A DNA stretch of 64,000 bases from an uncultured Acidobacteriota bacterium. Its GTDB lineage: Bacteria > Acidobacteriota > Terriglobia > Terriglobales > Acidobacteriaceae. Within the stretch, counting starts at the first letter, position 1; each line of letters begins with the position of its first letter. The stretch is from the NCBI GenBank assembly GCA_963844605.1, contig CAWJPE010000014.1, positions 132,707 through 196,706 of the forward strand, written 5' to 3'. The notes below the pieces were generated by a model that was not told the DNA's origin, did not search any database, and saw only the letters and a list, made by a program, of their open reading frames with translations. A program made the translations under genes and the position numbers. Below, in pieces: positions 10,420-49,319 of this stretch.

Positions 10420-11279
10420 AACGTGCGATGAGTCTGGCGTTTGTACTTCTGCTGGCCTGGGTTTGGGGCCGGGCGGCAGAGACTCACGCGGCGAAGGGGG
10501 TTGTGCTCAAAGTCGATGCAACGCATCGGACACTCGTCGTCTCGTGCGAGGCGATTCCCAATTACATGGATGCGATGGAGATGCCGTTTGTAGTTCAGGA
10601 CTCGGCGTCGCTCATGGGTTTGAAACCGGGCACGGCGGTGAGCTTTACCATCGTCGCGCGGCGGAAAGATCTGTATGCCGAAAATATCCGCGTGCGAGTT
10701 ACGACCAATCTGGAGTCCGAACCGCTGGAAGCTGGCCAGTTGACCGCTCTGCACAAGGCGATGCATCCAGAGGTAAAGGCTCTGACGGTGGGCGAGCGCG
10801 TTCCGGACTTTGTCCTGACCGACCAGGCTGGCAAGGAAGTTCGTCTTTCAGAATTTTCCGGGAAAGCGATCCTGCTTACGTTTGGCTATTCGCGTTGTCC
10901 GAATCCCAATTATTGTTTTCGGCTCTCGAATAACCTGGCGCGGGTTGAGAAGCGCTTTCATGACCTGGCGGGGCTGGACCTGGTGCTGATGACGATCGTG
11001 ATCGATCCCGAGCACGACCAGGGTGCGGCGCTGGTGAACTATGCCGGCGTGTGGAAAGCTGATCCGGCGGTGTGGCACTTTCTCACCGGGCCGCTGCCGG
11101 AAATTCAGCAGGTTGCGGGAATGTTCGGTATGAACTTCTGGAGCGATGACGGATTCGTTACGCACTCGCTGCACACGGTCATCCTGGATCGCAAGGGACA
11201 GCTTGCGGTGAATCTTGAGGGCAACGCATTCACGGCGGAAGAACTGGGCGATCTGGTGCAGGTGGTGATGAAGAACTAG
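10416..11279 (+). CDS. SCO1/SenC-family thioredoxin-fold protein fused to an N-terminal CusF-like metal-binding domain
   Basis: CusF-like KGVVLKVDATHRTLVVSCEAIPNYMDAMEMPFVV. SCO-like GKAILLTFGYSRCPNPNYC ... THSLHTVILDRKG. 4-nt overlap with the upstream gene. Confidence 0.8.
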   Translation: MKRAMSLAFVLLLAWVWGRAAETHAAKGVVLKVDATHRTLVVSCEAIPNYMDAMEMPFVVQDSASLMGLKPGTAVSFTIVARRKDLYAENIRVRVTTNLESEPLEAGQLTALHKAMHPEVKALTVGERVPDFVLTDQAGKEVRLSEFSGKAILLTFGYSRCPNPNYCFRLSNNLARVEKRFHDLAGLDLVLMTIVIDPEHDQGAALVNYAGVWKADPAVWHFLTGPLPEIQQVAGMFGMNFWSDDGFVTHSLHTVILDRKGQLAVNLEGNAFTAEELGDLVQVVMKN

Positions 11280-12712
11280 CGCCCTGCTTCACCCTTCGGC
11301 AAAAGGATCACGTAGGGAACCTCGGTCGAGGAGAATTGTGCGCGCTCGAAGTCCCTGTCGAATGGGGGCGCGTGGTCTCCGACGACAACAAAGATGGTGG
11401 GACGGTTGAGCGGCTTGAGCGCAAGATCGCGCATGGATTGGCTCATTACGGAGATGAGCTGATACCAGGAGCAAACAGCTGTATCGCTGCGAGTGATCGC
11501 GCTCATAGCACATGAACTGGGCGACTTGAGCTGGACGGGCCTCCAAAGTGGCAAGTGGGAGTTGAGCGTGACCCAGTGCACAAACAGGGGAGCATCGCCT
11601 GGCTGCTGGAGCCTGTCGCCCAGCCATGCGGCGATGGCATCATCGCAGCTTCCCCTGAACGTGCCGTCACAATCGGGCACACCAACAGCTTGCAGACGGT
11701 CGTGAAACCAGCTGTCTTCAAAGCCCATCTTTGAATACCAGTTGTTCCGGTCGTACATCTCGCCACTGAAGCCGTGTACGGCGAGGGTGCGATACCCCAT
11801 CCGGTGCAAACGCAGAGGCAGACAGCGCTGCAACTGCGCGGCGGTGCCCTGCGCGACGTAGGCGCCCATATGGGTCTGGCATAGCTCGCGCGCTTCGCCG
11901 GAAGTTGTCGGCCCCTGGAAAGGCATGGTGCCCTCGAGCACCTCATACTTTGCGTGCAGACGCGGGTCGGAGTAAGGCTCGACCATGGCGCGGCGCAGAG
12001 ACAAGTCGCGAGCCAGTCCCCACGATTCGACGACGACGAGGACGATGTTCGGTTGCTGAGCCCGGTAGTCGGACAAGTGGTTCAGCGCGAGCGCGGTCGC
12101 CGATGCCATCGCGTATTGTCCCCCGAGGCGCAGCCCCCGTTCGTATCGCCGGTAGATCAACTCGCTGTAAAGAAGGCCCGCTGTGGGCGTCCGCGAGAGA
12201 CGCGCGGAGTTGTTCTCATCGCCTGGATGAAGCAGGATGTCACGGGCGCTGCGAATATCCGCCAGCGACAGCAGGAGAAAGGGAACCAGCATGGTTGCGG
12301 ATGCGAGCTTGCGCTGCCGGCCGCTCAGGCGGGGCGAAGTGCAGGCCACACACGCCAGGCAGACGAGCAGCGCAGCGACAAAGGCCGCGACAATCAGTCC
12401 AATGCGCGTGGTCGAGAGCAACCCGCCGTAGCGCATGGTGTTGAAAAATTCAGCGGGTGCGAAGAGATAAGTCACACAGGCCGCGTGAATGAAATCAAGA
12501 ATGATAGCGGCGAGGAGAAGAATAAAAGTAACGACACGCGGCACGAAGAGGGACAGCAGGCCGATGAGGAGATAGTCGAGGTCGATGTATCCGTGGAGCA
12601 GCAGGTTGAGTGGATGGGCAGCGAGCAATAGCGGAAGATTGGGTAGAACGAGAAAGGCCGGGAGAAACAGGTACCAGCGAAACTCAACCCATCCACCCCT
12701 GCGAAGTATCAA
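11276..12712 (-). CDS. Membrane-anchored sulfatase / phosphoglycerol-transferase (LTA-synthase-like, alkaline phosphatase superfamily) protein
   Basis: N-terminal multi-TM region followed by IVLVVVESWG ... FVVVGDHAPP sulfatase-family motifs. The track ORF starts at 12865 but that overlaps the VKOR gene by about 120 nt, so I prefer the in-frame TTG at 12712. The start remains uncertain. Confidence 0.7.
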   Translation of the reverse strand: MILRRGGWVEFRWYLFLPAFLVLPNLPLLLAAHPLNLLLHGYIDLDYLLIGLLSLFVPRVVTFILLLAAIILDFIHAACVTYLFAPAEFFNTMRYGGLLSTTRIGLIVAAFVAALLVCLACVACTSPRLSGRQRKLASATMLVPFLLLSLADIRSARDILLHPGDENNSARLSRTPTAGLLYSELIYRRYERGLRLGGQYAMASATALALNHLSDYRAQQPNIVLVVVESWGLARDLSLRRAMVEPYSDPRLHAKYEVLEGTMPFQGPTTSGEARELCQTHMGAYVAQGTAAQLQRCLPLRLHRMGYRTLAVHGFSGEMYDRNNWYSKMGFEDSWFHDRLQAVGVPDCDGTFRGSCDDAIAAWLGDRLQQPGDAPLFVHWVTLNSHLPLWRPVQLKSPSSCAMSAITRSDTAVCSWYQLISVMSQSMRDLALKPLNRPTIFVVVGDHAPPFDRDFERAQFSSTEVPYVILLPKGEAGR

Positions 12713-12743
12713 GCCGCGACTCCTCCCGTGCGGACGCCTACGT

Positions 12744-13148
12744 CTAGACAGCGGATGCGCGCCGGCCAACGAACATCCAGACCAAGGCGAACAGGGTGAT
12801 GAGAGCGATGATTCCCTGAGAAATGACGCAGTAGAGGCACCAGACCTCGAGCTTGTGGGCTTCAATGTTGGTCAGGTAGAGGGCGAACCCCAGGCCAATC
12901 AGCGCGGCACCCAGCGTGAAGCCGCGGCGGCGCAGCAGCGCAAGGAGGCCCAGAACGAAATAGCCAGCAATTCCGATGGCGGCGACTGGGATGTGATGGA
13001 TCTCGGCATAGCGGCTGTGGTTCACGATGCCGCAGTCCCAGTGGGCGTTGATGTCGCAGGGTTGCACATCGTTCGAGTAGTGGACGTGCAGGGCCAGGGT
13101 GGAAACAACGATGCCCGCAAGGGCGAGGAACGCAATCAGGAATCGCAT
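12744..13148 (-). CDS. Vitamin K epoxide reductase (VKOR) family protein
   Basis: 134 aa with four TM helices. Loop cysteines (VQPCDINAHWDCG) and a redox CxxC (CLYC) in the last helix, which is the VKOR layout. Confidence 0.85.
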   Translation of the reverse strand: MRFLIAFLALAGIVVSTLALHVHYSNDVQPCDINAHWDCGIVNHSRYAEIHHIPVAAIGIAGYFVLGLLALLRRRGFTLGAALIGLGFALYLTNIEAHKLEVWCLYCVISQGIIALITLFALVWMFVGRRASAV

Positions 13149-13272
13149 GAACTTGGTCTTTCTCTCCTTCGGCTTGCGCCGGTTCTTTATTGGCTTACAT
13201 CGATTCTATGTTGACGAGTCTGTGTGTGCTCTGGGCAGCACTCGCCCACGAGCGCGCAGAAGCGATAAAATT

Positions 13273-13896
13273 ATGTCATTCACTATGCTACGCAACGTTT
13301 TGCTCTCTTTTACCGGTATCGTTCTCGCGCTCGGCGCTCAGGTAAGTCAGGCCCAGCATGATATGTCAACGCTGAAACCCCCCGCGGGCTCGCACGTGGC
13401 TCTCATTGAGTTTGCTGACATGGAGTGTCCGATGTGCGCGCGCCAGAATCCGACGATTAAAGATGCCGCGGCCAAATACCGCGTTCCCTGGCTGAGGCAC
13501 GATTTTCCCCTGCAGATGCACGTCTGGAGTTTCCAGGCGGCAGTGAACGCGCGGTGGTTCGATTCGAAGAAGCTGGGGAACGAATATCGCGACTACATAT
13601 TCGCCAACCAGATCAGCATCGAAACCAAGGACGACCTGCGGTCGTTTACGGAAAAGTTCGCGCAACAGCATGGCGTAGCGTTGCCCTTTGTGATCGATCC
13701 GCAGGGGAAGCTCGCCGATGAGGTGAAGGCTGACTATGCGCTGGGCGAGCGGTTGGGTGTACACCAGACACCTACCGTATGGGTGGTGACCGATCGGACA
13801 GGCGGCGCTCCTCCGTACGTCGAGGTGACCGACTATAACAAGCTGTACACGATACTGGACCAGGCGACGGCGGCGACCGGGCACGGGAAGAAATAG
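13273..13896 (+). CDS. DsbA-family thiol:disulfide oxidoreductase (secreted)
   Basis: Signal peptide MSFTMLRNVLLSFTGIVLALGAQVSQA. CxxC active site in FADMECPMCARQ. Divergent from the VKOR gene. I chose the ATG at 13273 rather than the track start at 13099, which overlaps VKOR. Confidence 0.8.
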   Translation: MSFTMLRNVLLSFTGIVLALGAQVSQAQHDMSTLKPPAGSHVALIEFADMECPMCARQNPTIKDAAAKYRVPWLRHDFPLQMHVWSFQAAVNARWFDSKKLGNEYRDYIFANQISIETKDDLRSFTEKFAQQHGVALPFVIDPQGKLADEVKADYALGERLGVHQTPTVWVVTDRTGGAPPYVEVTDYNKLYTILDQATAATGHGKK

Positions 13897-23730: not shown

Positions 23731-26700
23731 CTAGCTTGTTGTCAACTCCGCCGCAATCTTCTCGGTGACAAATGCTTCGATGGTGTCCCCCACCTGAATG
23801 TCGTTGAAGTTGGAGATACCCACACCGCATTCCATGCCGCTGGTGACCTCGCGAGCGTCGTCCTTGAAGCGCTTGAGCGAGGTGAGCTTGCCCTTGTAGA
23901 CCTGTTCGCCGTCGCGCATGAGGCGTACTTCGGCGTCGCGCTTGAGCACGCCGTCGCTCACACGGCAACCGGCGATGGTGCCCACCTTCGGAATTCTGAA
24001 GACGTTGAGAACTTCCGCGCGTCCCAGATAGCTCTCCTTGAAGACAGGATCGAGCAGTCCGAGCATAGCTTTGCGAATCTCGTCCTGAAGCTCGTAAATG
24101 ATCGAGTGCAGGCGAATCTCAACACCTTCCTGCTCGGCGAGTTCGGCGGTCTTGCGTTCAGGCCGCACATTAAAGCCGATGATGATGGCGTTCGATGCCG
24201 AGGCCAGAAGCACGTCGCTTTCGGTGATGGCGCCTGCGCCAGAGTGGATCACCTTGATACGCACCTGATCGGTGGACATCTTCTGAAGCGAATCGGCGAG
24301 GACCTGGACCGATCCCTGCACATCGCCCTTGAGGATCAGGGGCAAATCCTTGACACCGGCCTGTTTGATCTGTTCTGCCAGGCCTTCGAGCGAGACGCGA
24401 GAGCTCTTGGCGAGCTGCGCCTCGCGTTCCTTCATCTTGCGGTAGGTCGCAATGTTCTTGGCCTTGTCGCGATCAGCGACGACGAGGAAGGTGTCCCCGG
24501 CGTCGGGAATGCTCTCAAGACCCAGAATTTCGACCGGTGTGGACGGGCCAGCCTCCTGGATCGCGCGTCCGCGATCGTCGAACATGGCGCGGATCTTACC
24601 GAAGGTGTTGCCCATGATGAAGCTGTCCTGATTGCGCAGCGTTCCGTTCTGCACCAGCACAGAGGCGACAGCGCCACGTCCGCGATCGAGCTTGGCTTCG
24701 ATCACCGTACCGACGGCGGAGCGTCCTGGCGTGGCCTTGAGATCGCCAAGATCGGCGACCAGGCAGATCATTTCGAGCAACAAATCGAGGTTCTGCTTCT
24801 TCTTCGCAGAGACATCGACGAACACCGTCGACCCGCCCCAGGCTTCGGGGACAAGGCCGCGGTCGCCCAGTTGCTGCTTTACCCGATCCGGCTGCGCATC
24901 GGGCTTATCGATCTTGTTCACGGCGACGATGATCGGTACGTTGGCTGCCTTGGCGTGGTCGATGGCTTCGAGAGTCTGAGGCATCACGCCATCATCGGCG
25001 GCAACCACGACTACGACGATGTCGGTCACCTTGGCCCCGCGTGCACGCATGCGCGTGAAGGCTTCGTGACCAGGCGTATCGAGGAAGACAATTTCGCGAC
25101 CAAAGGCGGGCGAGTCTGCCTTGCTGATTCGCACCTTGTACGCGCCGATATGCTGGGTTATGCCACCAGCTTCGCCACTCGCAACGTCGGTCTCGCGGAT
25201 GGCGTCGAGCAGCGACGTCTTGCCATGATCGACGTGGCCCATGACCGTGACAACCGGCGGACGCGGAACTTCGTGCTCGTCGGGATTCTCCTGCGAGAGA
25301 ATGTTTTCGATGGCTTCGTTAGCCATCTGATCCTCAAAGGTGATGACCTCGGTGTCGGCGCCGAACTGGCGCGCGACATCCTTGACGAGTTCGCCATCGA
25401 GCGACTGGTTGACTGTGACGAAGACGCCGCGCAACAGCAGCACCGCAATCAGATCCTTGCCGCGGACTCCGAGCTTCTCAGCAAGATCCTTGACGCTGAT
25501 TCCTTCCGTCACCGTGATCGTGCGGGTGATGGGCAACGGCTCCGAGGGAACCTGGGCCCCACCGAAACGCGACGGCGGAGCGAAGCCCTTCATCGGGCCT
25601 TCTTTGGACTTGGGGTACTGCTGGCGGCCACGGCGCGCGTGTCCACCTGCAGCACGCTGCGGACGCGGCGCTTCGCCCGGAGGCGGTACCAGGCCTGGAG
25701 CTCCGCCGGGTCCGGGACGCTGGCCAAATCCGGGGCGAGGACCCATGCCGGGGCGCTGGCCGAAGCCGGGGCGTGCGCCGGGTGCTCCGCCAGCAGGCGC
25801 GCTGCGGGTCGGGTGCATAGGACGGCGTGCGCCGGGGGCTCCCGGAGCTCCGCCGGGTGCTCCACCCATGCCGGGGCGCTGGCCGGGGCCACCGCCAGGA
25901 CGGCGATCGAAAATCGGCCGACCGCGTTGAATGCCTGCGGGTCCGGTTGCGCCCTGTGGCGCGATTGGAACGGGCGGGGCAGGCGGGGCGATTGGCGCGG
26001 TATAGACCGGACGCGGGCCGGTTTGCGGCATGATCACACGGCGCGGCGCGGGTGCGGCTTCTACTGGGGCAGCAGCGACAGGCTGAGCAGCGACAGGTGC
26101 AGAAACCGGAGCGGCCGCGGTCGGAGCTGGAGGCGTGGTGACCGGTGGCTTCGCAACCGGCGGCGCTGCGACAACTACATCGCGCGGGACGGAGGTTTGC
26201 GTTGCTCCATGTGGGGCACCGGCAGCGCTGACAGCGCCAACCGGAGGCTTTGCCACTACAGGGCCGGCGGGCGGTTTTGCTGCAATGGCCGGTGTTTGCG
26301 GCGGAGGCGCAACGATCGGAGCAGCCTGACGCGGCTGGGGCATAATTCTGCGTGGAGCCGGCTGAGCCGCAATCGGTGGCGCCGGCGTGACTTGTGCCGG
26401 GCGCTCTCCGGCTGGAGCCTGTGCCGTCGCTACAGGAGAAGTCGCAACCGGAGCCGCCGGCTTGGTGACAGCAACCGGTTGCGCGGGTGTGACCACCGGA
26501 GCAGCGGGACGCGGCGGAGGTGCGGCAGCTTCTTCCTTCTTTTGCTGGATCGCCTTGATCACGTCGCCGGGCTTTGAAACGCGCGACCAGTCGATCTTCG
26601 GTTTGGGGGAAGCGGCCTCGACGCGCTGACTGCTGGCTGCGCCACTCTTGCCGCGTTGGAAGTGAGCGCGCACACGCTCGGCTTCGTCGAGCTCTAGCGA

Positions 26701-28707: not shown

Positions 28708-29289
28708 TTAGATTTCGGGAATCAGGTTAGCCTTCTCAACGTTGGAGACTTCGATTTCGGTTGTTTCCTGATTCACTTTCTTGCTTTTGCCCTTCTGTTT
28801 CAGGGCGCTGAGGTCAAGGGTGATGGCGCGATCGCTCACCTGTGTGAGCCTGCCTTGCCAATGGCGGTTGCCCGCTACCGGCTCAAATGTCTGGAGTTTG
28901 ACCAGGCTTCCGGAAAAGCGTTGGAAGTCAGAGACGCCGTGCAGTTTGCGGTCCAGTCCCGGCGATGAAACCTCGAGCGTGTAGTTGTCGCCCGGAACGA
29001 GTTCCTCGACGTCAAGGAGGGTCCCGAAATCCCGACTGAAGGCCTGGCAATCTTCGTGCGTCACGCCGGAGAGATGCTCGCGGTGAATCGGGTGAGAGTG
29101 GTCCTCGGCGCTAGCAGCCGCTTCCGCCGGAATCGCCAGCCGTGCGCGCTCTTCGGCGTTCTTCTCGATAAAGACTCGCAAGGTCCGGTCTTTCGCAGCG
29201 CCCACATACTCCACCTCAACCACGTCAAGGCCATGCGAGGCGGCGACGCGCTGCGCGGTGGTACGAATTTGGTCGAGACTCAGGGCCAT
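28708..29289 (-). CDS. rimP: Ribosome maturation factor RimP
   Basis: HGLDVVEVEYVGAAKDRTLRVFI...YTLEVSSPGLDRKL matches the RimP pattern and sits directly upstream of nusA. I chose the start at MALSLDQ (29289). Confidence 0.9.
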   Translation of the reverse strand: MALSLDQIRTTAQRVAASHGLDVVEVEYVGAAKDRTLRVFIEKNAEERARLAIPAEAAASAEDHSHPIHREHLSGVTHEDCQAFSRDFGTLLDVEELVPGDNYTLEVSSPGLDRKLHGVSDFQRFSGSLVKLQTFEPVAGNRHWQGRLTQVSDRAITLDLSALKQKGKSKKVNQETTEIEVSNVEKANLIPEI

Positions 29290-29329
29290 AGCCGGTTTTG
29301 CGGACGAATTTGCAACACTCTTTCTGCGC

Positions 29330-29356
29330 AAATAAAAAGTGGGCCATAAGCCCACT
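29330..29356 (-). terminator. Intrinsic terminator-like hairpin in the rimP-nusA-infB leader (candidate attenuator)
   Basis: Minus strand reads AGTGGGC-ttatg-GCCCACT followed by TTTTTATTT: a 7-bp GC-rich stem, a 5-nt loop and a T tract. It ends about 40-50 nt upstream of the rimP ATG. Confidence 0.5.
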
Positions 29357-29747
29357 CATCTCTCCGTGCCTGCCGGAAGTACACGGTCCAGGCGCGGACA
29401 AACTCGTCTGCTTCATTAGAATACGCCGATTCGGGAAGGAGTTCAATCGGGGCGATCTCGTTGCCCTGACTTTCCGAATCCGCTTGGTAGTGGGTCAGAT
29501 TGAATCCACACGGCTGAGATGGAACTCTCAAACTTGCATTCCGTCTGTCAGGATCGATGGGCAGTTGTCCGATTAGCTAACTACACAGACAAGTGGATTA
29601 CCTCGGGAGGGCAACAATCCGCCCGCGACCGTATCGTCGGCGTGCAGACCGCTTCTTGGCAGGTAGTATTTAGCGATTTCTGGGACTGGTCGACTAATTG
29701 TTTGAACAGGCGCAGCTTGTATCCTCATAATGATCTTGAGGTTATCT

Positions 29748-30536
29748 ATGGAACACTCTTTGTCCGCCCGCGATTTGATAGAGCGCGCGTTTGCTCTAGC
29801 CAGGCAATCCGGCAAACCTGAATGGTGGGTGATGGCAATTCCCGTCCTGAAGAACCGGTTGCTGCAGATTACCGCGCAGGCGTTCAAAGAATCCGATTTC
29901 GGCGCGTTAACCTTCCGCGAGTTCCTACAGAACAACGCTAACGTGTTGGAAATCGACAACAGCTTTCTGCCTGGTGCAGTTACCCTAAAGTCGGCTCAGA
30001 GCATACCCAGAGTTCCGAGCACAAGCACACCTCAACGAAACCGCGTTCGCGAGGATCTCTGGCGAGCCATTTTGGATTACTCGAGTGGCAATAAATATGT
30101 TTGGGATACCGAATCCTCCGCTGCGATCATTGCACCCGAAGGGACTGAGAGCCCGTTCTTGCCTACGATCTCACCTGAGACGATGACGGAATGGAAGACG
30201 GCGTTCCTCGCAGGCCTGCCTGACACTCCTGACGATGGTCGTCTCAAGGCTTGGCAGACACAGAGCCTTCCCACAGACGCCTTGCCTCCAGCGTTGCGCG
30301 TGCAGTGGAATCGGTTCCTAAAGCACAAAGTTCAGTCAACGCTAAGAGAGTGGTTCGACAGCCATCAGATCCCACAACCCCCTATCGTCCACCCGGCGAT
30401 CCCAGCTGAGAAGCGAGATGACACCGAGTTGTTCCGTGAATTCGTAATCAAGTGCATCGCGCAAATGTCAAAAGAGGAACTCGAAAAACTCTCGATTCCA
30501 TCGAGCGTAGCCTTTCGCGTAAATTCGTGCCGCTGA
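29748..30536 (+). CDS. Hypothetical protein with an OST-HTH/LOTUS-like N-terminal domain (islet gene A)
   Basis: GAGG lies 6 nt before the ATG at 29748. GKPEWWVMAIPVLKNRLLQITAQAFKESDFGALTFREFLQNNANVLEID fits the OST-HTH pattern. I cannot assign the remaining ~190 aa. Confidence 0.7.
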   Translation: MEHSLSARDLIERAFALARQSGKPEWWVMAIPVLKNRLLQITAQAFKESDFGALTFREFLQNNANVLEIDNSFLPGAVTLKSAQSIPRVPSTSTPQRNRVREDLWRAILDYSSGNKYVWDTESSAAIIAPEGTESPFLPTISPETMTEWKTAFLAGLPDTPDDGRLKAWQTQSLPTDALPPALRVQWNRFLKHKVQSTLREWFDSHQIPQPPIVHPAIPAEKRDDTELFREFVIKCIAQMSKEELEKLSIPSSVAFRVNSCR

Positions 30537-30553
30537 GAAGGAAACTCATTCCG

Positions 30554-31303
30554 TTGCCGGATGTTTATTTTTTTACTTCTCAGCGCGATTTGAATTCCAC
30601 CAAGCATCTTCGCGATAGCTATCAACGTGCCTGTGCGCAAAAAGGATGGAACTTCCAGTCGAGAGTTCTGACCCCAATGAAAACGCCAGCGGGGCGACCT
30701 ATCCTTCCCATCACCATCTCAGACGCAAAGGGACTCTATCCAAGAACTCACCGCGCCCGCGTGGCGACTTTGGTTTTCGGGACAGACCCAGCCGTTCCGC
30801 TTCGCCCGGACCTGATGGAATCAATCCGATTTCAGCGAACCGTTCCGTTGCGCCAATACCTCGACTACAAATCTTGCTGGGTTCGCGTGCCAAACGATCC
30901 AGCGAACCTCACTTGGGTTGGAGTCTTCGAAGGGTGGTGCGCGACTATCGATTGCGAAGACGAGCACGACCCTCGCTCTCTACCCTTCCATGTGTTCACG
31001 GGCGACGGCGCTCATCTTCACTTCGTAGAACGTCGTCAGGCGTTCAATGAACGATACGGAGCAGGTGCGAGTCGGACGGATGATTCCTCGCTGTTTTGGG
31101 AATTGGAGCCGCATAACTTTCACGGAACCGAGGCTCTGACTATCGCCGGCTACACTTGCCGTCCCGGTTTCCATTGGGACGTTTCTGGCAATCAATGGAG
31201 GCTGGCTACGCCTGTGGGAGTATGGGAGGGCAAGGGGCATGTGAACGTCTACCCTGACGCACATATCCGGTCGAAAGGCACCAATGTTCGGAAGATTTCG
31301 TGA
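30554..31303 (+). CDS. Hypothetical protein with His-rich motifs, no recognisable family (islet gene B)
   Basis: The frame is open from 30452 to 31303. Candidate starts are ATG 30452 (85-nt overlap with gene A), TTG 30554 (AAGGA about 11 nt upstream) and ATG 30677. Motifs: FHVFTGDGAHLHF, GFHWDV, GHVNVYPDAHIR. Confidence 0.65.
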   Translation: MPDVYFFTSQRDLNSTKHLRDSYQRACAQKGWNFQSRVLTPMKTPAGRPILPITISDAKGLYPRTHRARVATLVFGTDPAVPLRPDLMESIRFQRTVPLRQYLDYKSCWVRVPNDPANLTWVGVFEGWCATIDCEDEHDPRSLPFHVFTGDGAHLHFVERRQAFNERYGAGASRTDDSSLFWELEPHNFHGTEALTIAGYTCRPGFHWDVSGNQWRLATPVGVWEGKGHVNVYPDAHIRSKGTNVRKIS

Positions 31304-31312
31304 TAAGAAAGG

Positions 31313-31346
31313 AAAAACCCCCAGCACAACTTCGTGTGGGGGTTTT
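31313..31346 (+). terminator. Rho-independent terminator closing the two-gene islet
   Basis: CCCCCA(g)CAC-aacttc-GTGTGGGGG gives a 9-bp stem with one bulge. It is followed by TTTT and preceded by AAAAA, and starts about 15 nt after the gene B stop. Confidence 0.75.
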
Positions 31347-31712
31347 CAGAAACCGGTGCGAGCCCACCTATGCTATCGGGCGGTACGGCCGAGGGACCTG
31401 TTCGGGCGATGGAGAATGGCATCATTCTCAGGCTCGCAAGAGCGCGACACAGGCACACAAGGCTACTTCATCCCGGAGCTGAACTCCTCGGTAGCTACCC
31501 GAGGATGTTCCATGCAGGACTACTAAGCCCTGCATCCCCTTTAGAATATCTAAAAGCGCAGACTTTCGCAATGGATAAAAGACTCGAGTAGTGGTCAGTT
31601 GGACCCACTACCCGAAAACTCGCAATTGCCCCATAATTGACACCCCCGCCGAACCCGCAATAGCATTGGCCAGCCCCACCATTATGTTCCACGCAGCGGG
31701 ACAACCTCAGGC

Positions 31713-33347
31713 ATGACATGGTCGCAATCGTATCTCCTGTTTGGTAGGGGTCTGGGCTTTTCCGCTCTCATTGCTGCGGCTCCCATCTTTACCCTGTTGA
31801 TCCTGCTCGGCGTCCTTCGCAAGCCGGCGTGGCTTGCCGGACTTTCCGGGCTCGCCGTCACCTTTGTCCTTGCCATTGGGGCGTATCACATGCCCGCTGT
31901 AACGGCGGTGAGTGCGGCCCTTCATGGAGCTGCCTTCGGGCTCTTTCCCATCTCGTGGATCGTCTTCTGGGCGATCGTGCTCTTTCGTGTGACCGAGGTG
32001 ACCGGCAAGTTCGAAATCATCAAGCACTCCGTCGGGAGATTGACGCCGGACCATCGCCTGCAGGCCCTCCTGATTGCATTCGCATTCGGAGCTTTCCTTG
32101 AAGGCGCAGCGGGTTTCGGCACTCCCGTCGCTGTCGCTGCGACGATGCTAACGGGACTGGGCTTCACCGCATTCAGTGCGGCGGCCATCTGCCTCCTCGC
32201 AAACACCGCACCGGTTGCGTTCGGCTCTATTGCGATTCCGCTTGTAACCATGACAGGAACAACGGGCTTGCCCCTGGACAGGCTAAGCGCTGCAGTGGGC
32301 AGTCTCTGCGCTCCCGTTTCTCTCATTCTTCCTACATATCTGATCCTCGCCATGTGGGGTCTGAGGGGTCTGAACGGGATATGGTTTCCGGCGGCGGTTG
32401 CAGGACTGGCCTTCGCCTCGGTGCAGTTTGTTGTTTCGAATTTCATTGGCCCGCAGCTTACTGACATTCTGGCCTCGATCACAGCCGTCATTGCCTTGGT
32501 TGCTGTGCTGCGCTTTTGGCGTCCGGCAAAGCAAGCCAGCGAACACGTGCAGGAAACTCGTGCGGGTGCCAGTGCGGTTCCTGAGTACAGCACTGGGGAA
32601 GTACTATTTGCGTGGCTGCCGTACGGATTGCTCGTGGTATGCGTTTTGCTATGGGGTTATAAACCCATTCACGCGTTGTTGGACTCCGCCAGCATACCCA
32701 TTCGATGGCCATTTCTGCACAACGTAGTCCGGCGTGTACCCCCAATTGTTGCCCGGACCGCTCCCTATCCCGCGATCTTCAACCTGAATTGGTTCGCGGC
32801 TGCGGGCACCTCCTGCATGATCGCCACCTTTCTGTCTGCAATTTGCCTGAGGATGAGCCTGCGGCAGTTCTTTCGGGTATTACTTTCCGTGGCGCGCACG
32901 CTCATGCTGCCAACCGTAACCGTCGCCTCCGTACTCGCTATTGCTTTTCTGATGAACTACTGCGGAGCGACCGCCACTCTGGGACTGACTTTCTCCGCCA
33001 CCGGCGTAATGTTTCCTTTCTTCAGCGCTTTTCTCGGCTGGCTCGGAGTGTTCCTGACGGGTTCGGATACGTCTTCGAACGCACTCTTCGGCGGCCTGCA
33101 GATCATCACAGCCAACCGGCTGGGCCTGGATCCGGTGCTCATGGCTGCGACCAACTCCGCCGGCGGCGTTATGGGCAAGATGATCAGTTTGCAGACGATC
33201 GCAGTCGCTGCGGCCGCGACAGGCATGTCGGCCGCTGACCAGTCAAAGCTCTTTCGCTTCACACTCAAGCACAGTGTTCTGCTGGCGAGCGTCATCGGCG
33301 GCCTCGCGTTGCTCTATGTGTATGGGTTTCATTTCCGCTGGAGCTAA
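31713..33347 (+). CDS. lctP: L-lactate permease (LctP family)
   Basis: 544 aa, polytopic. FGLFPISWIVFWAIVLF, AFAFGAFLEGAAGFGTPVAV and FLTGSDTSSNALFG are LctP-family signatures. Confidence 0.9.
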   Translation: MTWSQSYLLFGRGLGFSALIAAAPIFTLLILLGVLRKPAWLAGLSGLAVTFVLAIGAYHMPAVTAVSAALHGAAFGLFPISWIVFWAIVLFRVTEVTGKFEIIKHSVGRLTPDHRLQALLIAFAFGAFLEGAAGFGTPVAVAATMLTGLGFTAFSAAAICLLANTAPVAFGSIAIPLVTMTGTTGLPLDRLSAAVGSLCAPVSLILPTYLILAMWGLRGLNGIWFPAAVAGLAFASVQFVVSNFIGPQLTDILASITAVIALVAVLRFWRPAKQASEHVQETRAGASAVPEYSTGEVLFAWLPYGLLVVCVLLWGYKPIHALLDSASIPIRWPFLHNVVRRVPPIVARTAPYPAIFNLNWFAAAGTSCMIATFLSAICLRMSLRQFFRVLLSVARTLMLPTVTVASVLAIAFLMNYCGATATLGLTFSATGVMFPFFSAFLGWLGVFLTGSDTSSNALFGGLQIITANRLGLDPVLMAATNSAGGVMGKMISLQTIAVAAAATGMSAADQSKLFRFTLKHSVLLASVIGGLALLYVYGFHFRWS

Positions 33348-44683: not shown

Positions 44684-47224
44684 ATGATTCTTGAGGACAT
44701 CCGCTACGCACTACGGCAGTTTGCCAAGGCTCCCGGGTTTACCGCGACAGCGGTTCTGACGCTCGCCCTGGGGATAGGCGCGACGACGGCGATCTTCACT
44801 CTCGTCTACGCGGTGCTGCTCAAGTCGCTGCCGGTGTCGAACCCGAGCGAGTTGATCCGCGTCGGCGACAACGAGAATTGCTGCATCAACGGCGGCATGC
44901 AGGACAATTGGTCGCTCTTCTCCTATGAGCAGTACAAGCAGTTTCGCGACAACACGCCGGGATTCTCGCAACTGGCAGCCTTCCAGGCTGGTCACAACCA
45001 GATTGGCGTGCGCCGCGAGGGCAGCAATCATCCGGCGGAGTCGCTGATCGGAGATTTTGTTTCGGGCAATGCCTTCGACACGCTGGGCCTCAGGGCCTAT
45101 GCGGGACGTCTGCTGAAGCAGTCCGACGATGACAAGGGTGCGCCTTCAGTGGCGGTAATCAGCTATCGCACTTGGCAGCAAAAGTACGGGGAAGATTCGT
45201 CGGTCGTCGGCGCGAGCTTTCAGATCAATGGCCAGCCGTTCACGATTGTCGGCATCACTCCGCCCGGATTTTTTGGCGAGCGGCTCGAAGGCGATCCGGC
45301 GTCGTTCTGGATACCGCTGAACAAAGAGCCGCTAGTCTTGGGCACCAACAGCGTGCTCGACGCGCCGGACCTCGACTGGCTCAACTTGATTGGCCGCATT
45401 CAACCGGGGGCCAACCAGAAGGAGATGGAGGCGCGGATGCAAGTGGGACTGCGCCAGTTTTTGCAAAGCCCAATACGCAAGCTTGACTCGCGCAGCACTG
45501 GGCTGATTCCGAAGCAGACGCTTCATCTTTCGCCGGGTGGCGGCGGCGTGCAGCGCATGCAGGAGCAGTTCAAGGATGCTCTGCACCTCCTGATGTGGAT
45601 CTCGGGGGCAGTCCTGCTGATTGCCTGCGCAAACCTGGCCAACCTGATGTTGGTGCGCGCCACCGCCAACAGGCAGAAGATTTCGATACAGGCAGCTTTG
45701 GGCGCGCCCAGGTCCAGGCTGGTCGGCCAGGCCCTGACCGAGAGTATTGTTCTCGCCGTGCTCGGAGGCATAGCCAGCCTGATCGTGGCCTACGGCGGAG
45801 CGCGGCTGATCGTGTATCTGGCTGCGGGCAAGAGTTACGTACCGATCGACGCTACGCCCTCACCGGCAGTGCTGGCATTTGCCTTTGCTGTGTCCATGGT
45901 GACGGGGATACTCTTCGGCGTAGCGCCGGCATGGGTGACGGCGCATGCTGATCCGATCGATGCGCTGCGCGATGCAAACCGCACGATGAAGCACAGCGGT
46001 CTGTGGACACAGAAGGCCCTTGTGGTAGTGCAGGCGGCGTTCTCCCTGATGCTGCTGTGTGCGGCGGCCTTGCTCATCCAGAGCCTGCGCAATCTGCATC
46101 ATCAGGACTTCGGATTCGACACGACGAACCGGTATATTCTGCACATCGATCCGCAGATGGCTGGCTATAAGGTAGAGCAGATTGACGCGTTGGATCGCCA
46201 ACTTCACGATTCTCTGGCAGCGATTCCCGGCGTGAAGTCGGTGGCCTGGTCGACCTACAGTCCCATGGAAGGCGACAACTGGGGCACCGGCGTTTACTTT
46301 GAAGGCAGGCAGCCTCCACCGCCCGGCAGCAACGAAAATGGCGCATCGTGGGTGCGAGCGAGCGCCGGATATTTCGATGCGGTGGGCACGCGCATCATTG
46401 GCGGCCGACCAATTACTGAACAGGACACGGCTTCCACGCGCAACATCGCCGTGGTCAACCAGGAATTCGTGAAGAAGTTCTACAAGGATCAAAATCCGAT
46501 CGGACAACACTTTGGCACTGACGACCAGAAATATGCCGGCATGTATGAGATCGTAGGTGTCACCGAGAACACCAACTACTGGCAGCCGACGAGCAAGATG
46601 CGCCCCATGTTTTTCGTCTCAGCGACCCAGCATTTGCATATCGACGATCCCGATGTAAAGCTTGGCGACACTTTCTCCCACATGCACCTCAACGCGTGGG
46701 AGCTGCGTACCAATCGGACGGTTCCTGGACTGGAGTCTCAGGTACGTGAAGCTCTGGCCCAGGTCAATCCGAACCTGACGGTGATCGACTTCCAGACGTT
46801 CGACGAGCAGGTGCAGGAGAACTTCAACCAGCAGGCGATGGTCGCAGACCTGACCTCCGTATTTGGACTGCTGGCCCTCGTGCTGGCTTCGATCGGTCTT
46901 TATGGCGTGACGGCGTACGCCGTGGCACGGCGCACGGGCGAAATCGGTATCCGCATGGCGCTGGGCGCGGATCGGACGGATGTCCTGCGTCTGGTGTTGC
47001 GGGGCGCGTTTCTCCTTGTGGGGATAGGGCTGGCCCTCGGCATCGTCTTCACCATGCTGGTCGGCCGGTTCATGGCGAGCCAGCTGTTTGGCGTCAAAGC
47101 CTACGACCCTGCCATTCTGCTGATCACAACAGTGATCCTCGGAGCGGCGGCGCTGATTGCATCGGTCATCCCGGCGCAGCGCGCGGCCAGCATCGAGCCC
47201 ATGGAGGCGTTGAGAACGGAGTAA
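44684..47224 (+). CDS. ADOP-family duplicated MacB/FtsX-type ABC transporter permease
   Basis: ILEDIRYALRQFAKAPGFTATAVLTLALGIGATTAIF is the classic ADOP N-terminus. Two MacB_PCD + FtsX modules. C-terminal RAASIEPMEALRTE. Confidence 0.9.
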   Translation: MILEDIRYALRQFAKAPGFTATAVLTLALGIGATTAIFTLVYAVLLKSLPVSNPSELIRVGDNENCCINGGMQDNWSLFSYEQYKQFRDNTPGFSQLAAFQAGHNQIGVRREGSNHPAESLIGDFVSGNAFDTLGLRAYAGRLLKQSDDDKGAPSVAVISYRTWQQKYGEDSSVVGASFQINGQPFTIVGITPPGFFGERLEGDPASFWIPLNKEPLVLGTNSVLDAPDLDWLNLIGRIQPGANQKEMEARMQVGLRQFLQSPIRKLDSRSTGLIPKQTLHLSPGGGGVQRMQEQFKDALHLLMWISGAVLLIACANLANLMLVRATANRQKISIQAALGAPRSRLVGQALTESIVLAVLGGIASLIVAYGGARLIVYLAAGKSYVPIDATPSPAVLAFAFAVSMVTGILFGVAPAWVTAHADPIDALRDANRTMKHSGLWTQKALVVVQAAFSLMLLCAAALLIQSLRNLHHQDFGFDTTNRYILHIDPQMAGYKVEQIDALDRQLHDSLAAIPGVKSVAWSTYSPMEGDNWGTGVYFEGRQPPPPGSNENGASWVRASAGYFDAVGTRIIGGRPITEQDTASTRNIAVVNQEFVKKFYKDQNPIGQHFGTDDQKYAGMYEIVGVTENTNYWQPTSKMRPMFFVSATQHLHIDDPDVKLGDTFSHMHLNAWELRTNRTVPGLESQVREALAQVNPNLTVIDFQTFDEQVQENFNQQAMVADLTSVFGLLALVLASIGLYGVTAYAVARRTGEIGIRMALGADRTDVLRLVLRGAFLLVGIGLALGIVFTMLVGRFMASQLFGVKAYDPAILLITTVILGAAALIASVIPAQRAASIEPMEALRTE

Positions 47225-47233
47225 GCGCTGCGT

Positions 47234-47545
47234 CTAACTCGGTCGCTCTTTCAAAATTCGCCGGAGATCGCGCGCTGAATGAAGCACAGCGTGAATGACG
47301 ATTCGTTCCGGAGTGCATTGATAGACAATCATGTATTTCTGAACAGGGAAGAAGAGGACCGAACGCGGGGTTAGATCCACTCGCGGATGTCCCGCTCTCG
47401 GAAACTGCTCAAGAAGGTCGAATGTCTTGAAGAATTCTTCTTCGATCTGGTCTGCGATTGACGAACTAGACTGAGCCGTGAGGTACTGCCAAACTTCGTT
47501 CAGATCGTCGACCGCTTGGGGTGAAAGAATGTAGCGCTTTGTCAC
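47234..47545 (-). CDS. parE: Type II toxin, ParE/RelE superfamily
   Basis: YILSPQAVDDLNEVWQYL...FPRAGHPRVDL...FFPVQKYMIVYQCTPERIVIHAVLHSARDL matches the ParE pattern. 4-nt overlap with the upstream antitoxin gene. Confidence 0.85.
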   Translation of the reverse strand: MTKRYILSPQAVDDLNEVWQYLTAQSSSSIADQIEEEFFKTFDLLEQFPRAGHPRVDLTPRSVLFFPVQKYMIVYQCTPERIVIHAVLHSARDLRRILKERPS

Positions 47546-47796
47546 GAGCGGCGCTGTTTCCTCGCTTGAAGGATGCGGCGTGCTTCATTGCCTGGAATTC
47601 CTTCGCCCCGCTCGATCTGAGAAAAGCTGTGTTCTATCTTGAGCCTGATCAATTCCCGATTGTCGTGAAGCCAGGTTTCCTGGGCGTCAAGCAATTCGAG
47701 CGCATGAGCGATCACTTCTTCAGGGTTTTTGAAGTGGCCCAGTTCGATTTCGCGCTTAATCCGCTGTTCGCTGGTTTCATCAACAGAGACATTCAT
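47542..47796 (-). CDS. parD: Type II antitoxin (ParD-like)
   Basis: 84-aa ORF overlapping parE by 4 nt. Helical, with a C-terminal toxin-binding-like tail. Confidence 0.7.
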   Translation of the reverse strand: MNVSVDETSEQRIKREIELGHFKNPEEVIAHALELLDAQETWLHDNRELIRLKIEHSFSQIERGEGIPGNEARRILQARKQRRS

Positions 47797-47849
47797 ACCA
47801 AGAGTCTACGACAGGTCTGCGATCTGCAAAACAGGACCAAAATTCAGTC

Positions 47850-49319
47850 CTACTTCTTCCTTGCTTTCACCTTGAACCAGATCGGCGAGCCTTCAAACCC
47901 GAAGGCTTCGCGAATCTGATTCCCAAGAAAGCGCTCGAAAGAGAAGTGCAGCTTCACGTCCCGGTCGGTGAAAAGGACAAACGTAGGCGGCGCGACCGCG
48001 GCTTGGGTCATGTAGAGAATTCGAACCCGCTTCGACAGCGGCACGCCTGCCTTTTGAAAATCGACCCGCTCCAGAAACCTGTTCATCTGCCCGGTGGTTA
48101 CGCGCTTGCGCCGCTCCTGCGCGACACGAATCGCCGTGTCGAGCACGCGGTTAAGGCTCCGGCTGTCCTTTTGCGCCTTGGCCGCAGAGATGAAGACAAT
48201 CGGTGCGTAGTCGAGATATTTGAGTTGATCGCGAACCTGGCTCTCGAAAATCTTCATGTCCGCCGGAGGCTTGCCGTCCGTGCGTCCCGTTGTCACCAGG
48301 TCCCACTTGTTGACGACAATCACCACCGACCGTCCGCTCTCGTGCGCATAGCCGCCAATCGTCGCGTCCGATGCCGTCACGCCTTCCGTCGCGTCAATCA
48401 TCAGGAGAGAAACATCGGCAGCCTCGAGATGGCGGCGGGCCATAATGACCGAGAGTTTTTCTGCCATTAGTTCAGTCTTGCCCTTGCGGCGAATACCCGC
48501 CGTATCGATGATGCGAAGCTGCTGGCCCTGGTAGTCAATCACCTCGTCAACGGCGTCGCGCGTCGTCCCCGCAATCGGCGAAACAATGGCGCGCGAGGTG
48601 CCGGTCAGCGCGTTCAGCAGGGTTGATTTCCCGACATTCGGGCGTCCAATGATGGCCAGCCGAGTCTCGTGTTGCTGATATTCGCCATGCGTCCGGTGCA
48701 CGGACTCTTGGGTCTCGTCTTCAGCACTAGATTCCTCTTCCACTGCGTCTTCCACCGGCCTGTCGTTGAAGGGCAGGACAGCGAAGACCTCGTCCAGCAG
48801 CTCGCCGATATTGTGCCCGTGCTCCGCGGAGATGGCGATGAGATTCCTGATCCCAAGCTGGCGGAAGTTCTCCGCTGCAGCGTCGAGCGCCTCAACATCG
48901 ATCTTGTTCACCGCAAGAAAAAGCGGCTTGCCGGAGCGGATCAGCAGACGGGCGAGATCGAGGTCGGGCGAAGCGAGTTCGGTGCGCCCATCGACCACCA
49001 TCACAATCGCGTCAGCTTCCTGTACGGCGACCTGGGCCTGGCGAAAAATCTCTGCCGGAATCAGCGCCACATCGTCGGGGATGATGCCCCCCGTATCCAC
49101 AATGCGCGCCGTGCGTCCGGACCACTCGACCTCGCCGTAGATGCGGTCGCGCGTGATTCCCGGTTCATCTCCCACAATCGAACGGCGCGAGCCGGTGAGG
49201 CGATTAAAGAGCGTCGACTTCCCAACGTTCGGGCGCCCAACGATTACAAACACGGGCTGGCCATCTCCGGTTTGCCCGGAGTTCTTGATTCGCGACTTCC
49301 TGCTATTGGATTTCTTCAA
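47850..49319 (-). CDS. der: Ribosome-biogenesis GTPase Der (EngA)
   Basis: Two tandem G domains (GRPNVGKSTLFN / DTGG / NKID, then GRPNVGKSTLLN / DTAG / NKWD) plus a KH-like C-terminus. Confidence 0.97.
   Translation of the reverse strand: MKKSNSRKSRIKNSGQTGDGQPVFVIVGRPNVGKSTLFNRLTGSRRSIVGDEPGITRDRIYGEVEWSGRTARIVDTGGIIPDDVALIPAEIFRQAQVAVQEADAIVMVVDGRTELASPDLDLARLLIRSGKPLFLAVNKIDVEALDAAAENFRQLGIRNLIAISAEHGHNIGELLDEVFAVLPFNDRPVEDAVEEESSAEDETQESVHRTHGEYQQHETRLAIIGRPNVGKSTLLNALTGTSRAIVSPIAGTTRDAVDEVIDYQGQQLRIIDTAGIRRKGKTELMAEKLSVIMARRHLEAADVSLLMIDATEGVTASDATIGGYAHESGRSVVIVVNKWDLVTTGRTDGKPPADMKIFESQVRDQLKYLDYAPIVFISAAKAQKDSRSLNRVLDTAIRVAQERRKRVTTGQMNRFLERVDFQKAGVPLSKRVRILYMTQAAVAPPTFVLFTDRDVKLHFSFERFLGNQIREAFGFEGSPIWFKVKARKK

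Follow-up and report, generated by a model that had tools for sequence, protein, structure and literature searches.

The stretch analysed here, called the window, comprises 64,000 nucleotides of contig CAWJPE010000014.1 (positions 132,707 to 196,706; assembly GCA_963844605.1) from an uncultured bacterium of the Acidobacteriaceae. Positions 29702-31572 of the window are occupied by a cassette of about 1.9 kb with three genes: two protein genes, A and B, on the plus strand and the gene of a structured noncoding RNA (ncRNA) on the minus strand (Table 1). The genes for RimP, NusA and IF-2 lie on one side on the minus strand and that for lactate permease on the other side on the plus strand, as an earlier note on this DNA, made from the letters alone, had named them (rimP-nusA-infB and lctP). 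That note had described a two-gene islet (29360-31612). Its two open reading frames (ORFs) of the same direction are present as claimed, A at 29748-30536 and B in the frame of an ORF of 30452-31303, but the third part, the RNA gene on the minus strand, was overlooked. This dedicated structured RNA gene is an obligatory part of the system, and its presence changes the likely mechanism. The cassette of the window is one copy of a horizontally mobile three-gene unit, the parts of which co-occur across phyla.

The RNA gene is delimited by comparison among loci, which are designated here by L numbers. Similarity detected by blastn between the window and the cassettes of L008 and L009 spans 29702-31572, that is, it extends 270 bp past the stop codon of B; its left edge falls at the promoter-like site of A-B and its right edge at the promoter of the RNA. 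The stretch 31377-31537 is matched, with 67-77% DNA identity, even by loci where A has fallen to about 45% identity. When the region after B is aligned for 12 loci, a hairpin comes first and then about 190 nt of conserved sequence, which contains invariant motifs and compensatory hairpins. The hairpin, an intrinsic terminator, is found directly 3′ of the B stop codon (31301-31303) and at the same position in all aligned loci. The earlier note had taken it to close the cassette; the hairpin with its A-run and T-run is present, but it is internal and bidirectional, and conservation within the islet is highest beyond it, at 31347-31572, which is no spacer. No match to Rfam 15 at E ≤ 1 was obtained in 29200-31800 on either strand.

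Folded as the minus strand, the alignment gives −51.4 kcal/mol with 53 pairs and a G-U:A-C ratio of 72:15, compared with −36.7 kcal/mol, 39 pairs and 36:19 when folded as the plus strand. The RNA is placed on the minus strand because of this folding energy and G-U asymmetry, because a promoter lies at a fixed distance in most of the 14 seed loci, and because the A-rich side of the terminator hairpin, which is the U-tract of the minus strand, is steadier across loci than the T side. Over 14 loci, a TAnnnT −10 box is kept in 13 and a TTG-type −35 box stands at 17-18 nt, being weak in three; the distant locus L159 has TTGACA-17-TACAGT. On the same grounds (folding energy, G-U asymmetry, and the signals for promoter and terminator), a plus-strand RNA or an element of the 3′ untranslated region was rejected.

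Five helices and a pseudoknot of this RNA are supported by covariation. In a model-fitted alignment of 33 distinct RNA sequences, paired cells amount to 91.8% against 79.9% in shuffles, a level reached by none of 500 shuffles, and 35 of 54 pairs are changed on both sides, compared with 19.9 ± 2.0 in shuffles; in slid controls pairing drops to 33-47%. Alignments made by MAFFT only and analysed with RNAalifold give the same picture, with double changes in 20 of 37 pairs. The pseudoknot P1, in which the loop CGAGCC pairs with the tail GGCUCG, covaries although it lies outside the covariance model. The pair that flanks it occurs as G-C in 16 sequences and as U-A in 12, and variants of the pseudoknot include CGAAC:GUUCG in L155, CGGGC:GCCCG in L159 and GUGGGGC:GCCCCAC in L016 and L017. 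Unpaired bases and internal loops are also strongly conserved in sequence. Between the window and its close relatives the distance of the RNA is 0.06-0.16, compared with synonymous divergence (dS) values of 0.6-2.4 for the adjacent genes; among the three parts of the cassette, the RNA is under the strongest constraint. The possibility that it acts as an antisense RNA to the translation start of A or B was rejected, duplex energies being no better than those of shuffles (z from −1.9 to +1.4). In the close clade, the RNA contains AUGGAACA, a sequence that also forms the start-codon region of the A mRNA (in L008, 10000-10026 versus 11746-11772; equivalents in the window 29747-29757 and 31505-31517). 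This segment of the RNA could mimic the A start-codon site, in a match limited to the close clade.

The RNA travels with the cassette. A covariance model was built from 14 seed sequences, and beyond the seed it detects the RNA in the Vicinamibacterales loci L016 and L017 at 42 bits and also in L151, L152 and L155; the distant non-seed cassettes L157 and L159 give weak matches (23 and 16 bits). A pattern for the RNA only was scanned over metagenome contigs, followed by the covariance model, which confirmed 26 of the 82 pattern-matching loci examined (80 metagenomic, 2 viral). B is adjacent and convergent at 24 of the 26 RNA copies, and A is present too where the contig reaches; the other two copies lie at contig ends. 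The full set of RNA hits in metagenomes numbers more than 120. The 56 pattern matches removed by the model were chance occurrences in G+C-rich coding sequence, and the two matches from the scan of viral contigs were both chance matches in coding sequence. Among the groups that carry A-B, the RNA is detected in all except one actinobacterial locus and is weak in other actinobacteria. In Microbacterium and Curtobacterium (L022 and L024, about 11680-12000), an RNA-like element of 17 bits is co-strand with A-B and has its own plus-strand terminator. It keeps the internal order of CGAGCC, GAAU/AUUC hairpin and GGCUCG. This flip of the RNA in Microbacteriaceae speaks against a role that needs convergent transcription and is compatible with an independent RNA gene.

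The A-B pair is distributed among Acidobacteriaceae, Bryobacteraceae, Solibacter, other Terriglobia and Vicinamibacterales, and it is also found in the actinobacteria Herbidospora, Microbacterium and Curtobacterium and in a gammaproteobacterial metagenome-assembled genome (MAG). One Acidobacteriaceae MAG has two diverged copies (L008 and L009). The idea of a foreign cassette, put forward in the earlier note, is correct, since the pair occurs in three phyla in unrelated neighbourhoods and the cassette has less G+C than its flanks in 21 of 22 loci (mean difference 5.7 points); the dip thus belongs to the cassette itself. In the window, 29360-31612 has 54.0% G+C against 59.3% for the whole (standard deviation 2.8% among 1-kb windows), and the lowest value of the window, 53.0% at 29501-30500, is in the islet. 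The dip noticed earlier is therefore real in a windowed calculation, but the contrast is far smaller than the hand counts had implied.

The contexts of the cassette are varied. In L151, it directly follows a tyrosine integrase gene and precedes a type IV secretion cluster, an arrangement of an integrative and conjugative element (ICE). It directly follows Type III restriction-modification genes in L155 and Type ISP restriction-modification genes in L002; it comes after a TacA-GNAT toxin-antitoxin (TA) pair in L004 and after serA in L005, and in L001 it is located beside genes for nonribosomal peptide synthetase/polyketide synthase. GmrSD, AbiEii, IS110 and IS21 genes are found near it in other loci. 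In L152-L154, which represent the same species from many samples, the cassette and a 336-aa ORF lie between trpA and trpB-trpF-trpC (9300-13500) and interrupt the trp cluster, and an AbiEii gene is located 7 kb from the cassette. In L002, two perfectly complementary 38-nt arms separated by 28 nt (9018-9121) stand between the RNA gene, which they closely follow, and an IS21-type transposase pair; this inverted repeat is probably the end of an insertion sequence (IS) or of a miniature inverted-repeat transposable element. In the window, an 18-nt inverted repeat (29486-29503 and 31595-31612, 83% complementary) brackets the islet. It is probably a chance pair because it lies outside the common block and has no equivalent in eight other loci, and for the same reasons it was rejected as terminal inverted repeats. 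No tandem repeats were found in 29200-31800.

Protein A has 64 homologues, of which one is 100% identical to it. Scans of A against Pfam, NCBIfam, PADLOC and PHROGs were empty at standard thresholds, and the protein of the window gives no match to the OST-HTH/LOTUS model PF12872 of Pfam at E ≤ 1. Nevertheless, the earlier assignment of its N-terminus to OST-HTH/LOTUS holds at the level of the family: 30 of 40 members give matches to PF12872 below threshold (best E 1.6e-4), and the top PDB matches in Foldseek for residues 1-85 of an AlphaFold2 (AF2) model are LOTUS domains of TDRD7, Tejas and TDRD5, with a probability of 0.87-0.97. The target template-modelling (TM) score of the N-terminus is 0.54-0.57 for the TDRD7 LOTUS domain (3rco and 2lh9; probability 0.96-0.97) and 0.64-0.71 for that of Tejas. 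The weak Foldseek E-values of A (≥0.16) are ascribed to the use of the whole protein as the query. A winged-helix LOTUS fold of about 80 residues is thus predicted for the N-terminal domain, with support at the family level. The LOTUS domain is an RNA binder (PMC2848206, PMC7498356). The middle domain is small and beta-rich in the AF2 model (predicted local distance difference test, pLDDT, 78.7), and no family assignment was obtained for it or for the helical C-terminus, which has a helix-turn-helix (HTH)-like motif, MSKEELEKLSIPSSVAFRV. This motif, together with the palindrome at the A promoter, which could be an operator or a hairpin of the 5′ untranslated region, suggests that A perhaps represses its own operon.

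For protein B, the earlier note had left two starts standing. The TTG at 30554 is retained and the ATG at 30677 is discarded, because 25 homologues, each of about 250 aa, keep the N-terminus MPDVYFF; the sequence AAGGA is found 9 nt upstream of this TTG. Comparison with three relatives gives dN/dS values of 0.06-0.09 for B and 0.12-0.15 for A, and both are real genes under purifying selection. In the AF2 model of B (pLDDT 85.5; predicted TM score 0.80), residues 1-131 form a flavodoxin-like alpha/beta domain, followed by a conserved loop of low model confidence, DPR(C)LP(F)H, and by an all-beta C-terminal domain with GFHWD and NVxPDAxxR. Near-invariant residues include H66, K106, D139, R141, D176, H190, H207, W208, D209, N231 and R239. 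The family has at least 331 representatives or clusters at 50% identity in public data.

The earlier note could name no family for B, and neither can we. B has no match in Pfam, NCBIfam, PADLOC or PHROGs; Pfam gives no consistent model at E ≤ 0.01 among 130 diverse relatives; Foldseek against PDB and BFVD gives nothing at E ≤ 0.001; and profile searches of PDB sequences with three profiles gave nothing meaningful. Fold leads to flavodoxin, LacI, PIWI-MID, vWA and resolvase all have TM scores below 0.3 and are read only as a generic N-terminal alpha/beta fold. A beta-trefoil-repeat-like match to YxNVyPDaxvrG (E 0.011) and a match to RelF (E 0.26) were treated as chance. The caution of the earlier note in withholding the name EndoU was right: B is rejected as an EndoU/XendoU ribonuclease, with no Pfam profile match at E ≤ 1 in B or its relatives and no structural match. 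PD-(D/E)xK, HNH and PIN motifs were also dismissed, as the required residues are not conserved, and so was a serine recombinase, as the position after beta-1 varies among S, P, L, H and G and PF00239 gives no match. A CHCH zinc site in the loop (C134, H138, C142 and H146) is not kept across the wider family.

What remains for B is a weak likeness to polymorphic toxins. Ntox37 is an all-beta polymorphic-toxin domain with conserved E, [KR] and Hx[DH] (Zhang et al. 2012, PMC3482391). Among 127 C-terminal halves of B proteins, 15 match Ntox37 (PF15535) at E ≤ 1, the best with E 0.003, and six match Ntox17 at a relaxed threshold. The alignment of one relative to Ntox37 (16.8 bits, E 0.01; profile positions 36-72) spans the core H190-G...GFH207WD209. 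H207-W-D209 of B fits Hx[DH], an equivalence of residues that depends on one weak alignment and the published motif list (PMC3482391). The Ntox37 likeness of the B C-terminus is a weak lead and not a membership.

A and B are closely linked, in agreement with the co-occurrence check that the earlier note had proposed. In a hidden Markov model (HMM) scan of all fetched loci, B is directly downstream of full-length A on the same strand except in L018, and one protein of 569 aa (P0219) is a fusion of A and B. The translation of B appears to be tied to that of A, either by an mRNA hairpin or by overlap of stop and start. In the window, where the gap between the genes is 18 nt, the hairpin at 30531-30585 encloses the A stop codon, the ribosome-binding site of B and its TTG start; in the distant loci L001, L002, L006, L153, L155, L157 and L159, A stop and B start overlap by 4-11 nt in gene calls. 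L018, from Rugosimonospora africana, has a full-length A (9938-10804), no detectable B and an 87-aa fragment of the A C-terminus (11082-11342), and looks like a degraded cassette. In the Vicinamibacterales loci L020, L021, L023 and L028 (about 9950-10530), a lone truncated A lacking LOTUS occurs with no B and no RNA match; that of L020 has 192 aa (HMM positions 89-262), with a convergent GGCT/AIG2-like ORF alongside. These lone copies could be domesticated or decaying remnants. In the gammaproteobacterial MAG (L025, 9911-10770), a frameshift or an assembly error divides A between two frames; the match to B ends at HMM position 219, and the RNA is intact (154 bits). The A segments of L025 are 54% identical to acidobacterial A, which suggests a recent transfer across phyla.

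Table 1. Positions of cassette features in the window (nt, nucleotides; aa, amino acids)
Feature	Position	Strand	Remarks
Promoter-like site of A-B, TTGAAC-18 nt-CATAAT	29702-29731	+	consensus scan; kept in close clade (window, L008, L009, L151)
Palindrome CCTCA-n9-TGAGG	29721-29743	+	read from sequence; overlaps −10 box and ribosome-binding site of A; kept in close clade only
Gene A, 262 aa	29748-30536	+	LOTUS-like N-terminal winged helix, small middle domain, helical C-terminus
mRNA hairpin (inverted repeat I3)	30531-30585	+	14-bp stem, 93% complementary; folds in window, L008, L009 and L049
Gene B, 249 aa, TTG start	30554-31303	+	N-terminal alpha/beta, conserved loop, C-terminal all-beta domain
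Bidirectional intrinsic terminator, common to A-B mRNA and convergent RNA	31313-31346	both	A-run 31313-31317, G+C-rich hairpin 31318-31342, T-run 31343-31346
Structured ncRNA gene, ~225 nt	31310-31538	-	predicted start ~31536; 3′ end at terminator (~31310)
RNA covariance-model core	31357-31538	-	160.6-bit match in window; ~185 nt without terminator
RNA helix H1	31515-31531	-	
RNA helix H2	31481-31510	-	
RNA long interrupted helix	31442-31479 with 31372-31407	-	
RNA helix P2	31411-31428	-	
RNA pseudoknot P1	31431-31437 with 31358-31364	-	
RNA sigma-70-type promoter	31543-31571	-	−35 TTGCGA (31571-31566), 17-nt spacer, −10 TATTCT (31548-31543)

No component and no architecture of the cassette matches a described system, save the LOTUS fold of A and a generic TA gene layout, and within the literature library that was searched, no description of the cassette or of the RNA was found. 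The type III TA systems ToxIN, CptIN and TenpIN are similar in being small mobile cassettes of a protein effector and a dedicated pseudoknot RNA, with a terminator between the RNA and protein genes, and in their association with phage defence, which we count as a further likeness. However, their tandem repeats of about 36 nt have no counterpart here: the RNA of the cassette consists of one unit without repeats, about 185 nt long plus terminator. It lies downstream, is usually convergent and has its own promoter, whereas the type III array is upstream of the toxin gene. The cassette also requires a second protein, A, and B and 130 relatives have no match to ToxN, AbiQ or CptN in Pfam, NCBIfam or PADLOC. 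Retrons, DRT2 and DRT9 (DRT, defence-associated reverse transcriptase) share with the cassette three parts in one mobile unit, namely a structured ncRNA, a nucleic-acid-handling protein and an effector. In retrons and other tripartite ncRNA defence modules, the nucleic acid restrains the effector. Unlike in these systems, the RNA is not upstream on the same strand, and no reverse transcriptase or known defence domain is found in A or B by Pfam or PADLOC.

Type II TA systems resemble the cassette in the adjacent order of an upstream nucleic-acid-binding gene and a downstream putative toxin gene with coupled translation, and in patchy distribution and insertion between housekeeping genes. The cassette departs from them in the size of its proteins (262 and 249 aa, both large), in that neither is a member of a TA family, and in having a conserved RNA gene. 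The N-terminal winged helix of A, with its weak similarity to PF12872, is shared with OST-HTH/LOTUS proteins (bacterial LabA/NYN-OST-HTH, MARF1, TDRD5/7 and Oskar), and the coupling of A to a putative nuclease-like effector recalls NYN-LOTUS proteins, although the effector is encoded by a separate gene and is not NYN/PIN, A bears two extra unassigned domains, and a dedicated RNA partner is encoded alongside. With Ntox37/Ntox17 toxins, B appears to share an all-beta C-terminus and an Hx[DH]-type motif (..HG..GFHWD..). Unlike them, it is cytoplasmic, lacks an Imm32-type immunity gene and stands in no secretion or RHS context; none of its scores reaches the gathering threshold of Pfam. Rsr (Ro60) with Y RNA/YrlA is also an accessory, horizontally spread ribonucleoprotein (RNP) in which proteins are encoded beside a dedicated, separately transcribed structured RNA, but the cassette has no TROVE or vWA domain, and its RNA has no Y-RNA or tRNA-like match in Rfam. 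Two orphan protein families and a new RNA family in an architecture lacking a counterpart constitute, in our judgement, a new kind of module.

We favour, tentatively and at somewhat less than even confidence, a reading of the cassette as a conflict module of three components, one of them RNA, that belongs to the TA or abortive-infection kind. B would be the effector, a toxin acting via its Ntox37-like C-terminal domain. The LOTUS domain of A would bind the dedicated RNA, and A would also contact B, so that the abundant, separately transcribed RNA and A together keep B inactive or set its specificity. B would then be released when the RNA is lost, cleaved or displaced, and the trigger might be loss of the cassette, a shut-off of transcription or a phage factor. 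Autorepression of the operon by A may be added to this scheme. A conflict-type character fits the patchy distribution, the two diverged copies in one genome, the low G+C of the cassette and its insertion beside integrase, restriction-modification and TA genes. A TA or abortive-infection module had already been suggested in the earlier note; the suggestion is sustained circumstantially by the neighbourhoods, the coupling of B to A and the weak Ntox37 likeness, but PADLOC has no model of this kind, and the two-gene layout on which it was based is incomplete.

Several observations weigh against a conflict module. PADLOC-DB 2.0 contains no model for A or B (0 matches at E ≤ 1), and B has no tblastn match among the plasmids of PLSDB or the phages of INPHARED. 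Most of 134 neighbouring ORFs in 14 further loci are metabolic, alongside a few PIN, DDE transposase, AriA/GajA-like, PtuB and type IV restriction genes. The neighbourhoods appear only moderately enriched in defence or mobile genes, which is suggestive and not strong. The Ntox37 similarity is under the Pfam threshold (16.8 versus 27.8 bits), and B of the window itself gives none. The same protein has Ser at the near-invariant Cys142 (30977-30979; EHDPRS versus EHDPRC), a position that is Cys in more than 90% of close homologues and tolerates Val, Ala and Ile in the wider family. The RNA is far larger and more complex than known RNA antitoxins and has no repeats, which makes an active role as cofactor or guide as conceivable as an inhibitory one.

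This last point leads to a reading outside conflict, in which B would process or modify RNA and the cassette RNA would provide its scaffold, cofactor or substrate, A being the RNA chaperone. The unit would then be an accessory RNP, like Ro60/Rsr with Y RNA, and would bring a conditional physiological benefit. The five helices, pseudoknot and invariant unpaired bases of the RNA exceed the needs of known RNA antitoxins, the RNA has an independent promoter, many loci lie among housekeeping genes, and both proteins are under strong purifying selection, all of which would suit an RNP enzyme. We consider it unlikely, because the distribution across phyla is patchy, the composition is foreign in 21 of 22 loci, the cassette often adjoins restriction-modification, TA, integrase or IS genes, some loci contain only decayed copies or parts (truncated A in L020, L021, L023 and L028; frameshifted A in L025), and the C-terminus of B resembles toxin domains. 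The RNA might also be a mere expression regulator or hitch-hiker outside the effector complex of an ordinary type II-like protein-protein TA pair. The classic order of a nucleic-acid-binding protein and a putative toxin with coupled translation, the A-B fusion, the HTH-like C-terminus of A with the palindrome at its promoter, and the fact that only a terminator is common to RNA and mRNA are in favour of such a pair. It is rendered rather improbable by the RNA itself, which is more conserved than either protein, is always with A-B, keeps its internal architecture when its orientation is flipped in Microbacteriaceae and has no significant complementarity to the translation start regions of A or B; moreover, A carries LOTUS, a known RNA binder.

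A self-mobilising element, in which B is a new recombinase or nuclease and the RNA guides or assists insertion as does the IS110 bridge RNA or the omega-RNA of TnpB/IscB, would explain the many unrelated insertion sites in a unit with no integrase of its own and the position of the RNA gene at one boundary of the conserved block, and weak Foldseek matches of the N-terminal domain of B are to resolvase-type alpha/beta domains. Yet these fold matches all have TM scores below 0.3, no Ser is conserved at the position of the resolvase nucleophile, no near-identical multiple copies are found (both copies in one genome have only about 80% DNA identity to the window), no consistent terminal inverted or direct repeats occur in nine loci, and the internal loops of the RNA are conserved, unlike variable guide segments. 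This makes self-mobilisation very improbable. There is hardly any likelihood that the block after B is no RNA gene and instead a DNA recombination site such as an integron attC, which folds as single-stranded DNA. A conserved structured element at the 3′ end of a promoter-proximal mobile gene cassette, with a long imperfect hairpin, does bring attC to mind, but an attC site is a single hairpin of 57-141 nt, in contrast to about 185 nt with five helices and a pseudoknot. Strongly conserved unpaired bases, a conserved −35/−10 promoter and terminator and a strand-specific excess of G-U over A-C are likewise at variance with it. No attC array appears in the gene maps (R″/R′ core-site motifs were not searched for), and the sole adjacent integrase is co-directional and borne by an ICE.

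Beyond the conflict module that we favour, a bolder version can be formulated, to which we assign a low probability: the cassette could be the first of a new prokaryotic class of RNA-centred immune or conflict systems, in which a LOTUS protein loads a pseudoknotted RNA onto an orphan effector and the RNA serves as sensor, guide or allosteric switch instead of a passive antitoxin. If so, LOTUS would gain a native bacterial RNA partner and an evolutionary antecedent for the LOTUS-organised RNPs of the animal germline. Co-moving protein-RNA modules, such as CRISPR, retrons, type III TA, omega and bridge RNAs and DRT2, have repeatedly proved to be mechanistically new and worth developing as tools. 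The absence of a reverse transcriptase, a Cas-like protein, a transposase and a repeat array makes it unlikely that a known mechanism recurs here. With its pseudoknot and a length of about 185 nt plus terminator, the RNA of the cassette defines a new family of structured RNAs not in Rfam 15; it is tied to two uncharacterised protein families, of which that of B has no Pfam model in spite of its size. A would be the first bacterial OST-HTH/LOTUS protein encoded beside a candidate cognate RNA, by which the long-debated RNA-binding role of the LOTUS domain becomes directly testable. At 1.9 kb, with its own promoters and terminator, the cassette is compact and self-contained and can be synthesised as is.

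Some features of the window lie outside the cassette. At about 500-3000 and 47000-48000, G+C content is about as low as in the islet (53.9-54.8%). A G+C peak at about 25400-26400 (up to about 76% in a 400-nt window) corresponds to the Pro/Ala-rich low-complexity N-terminal region of IF-2 and is no foreign segment. On the minus strand, the sequence GAGTGGGCTTATGGCCCACTT at 29337-29357 forms a terminator-like hairpin with TTTATTT after it and overlaps the earliest in-frame start of the rimP ORF. The hairpin may serve the rimP-nusA-infB operon as leader or attenuator, and the true start of rimP is probably further downstream.

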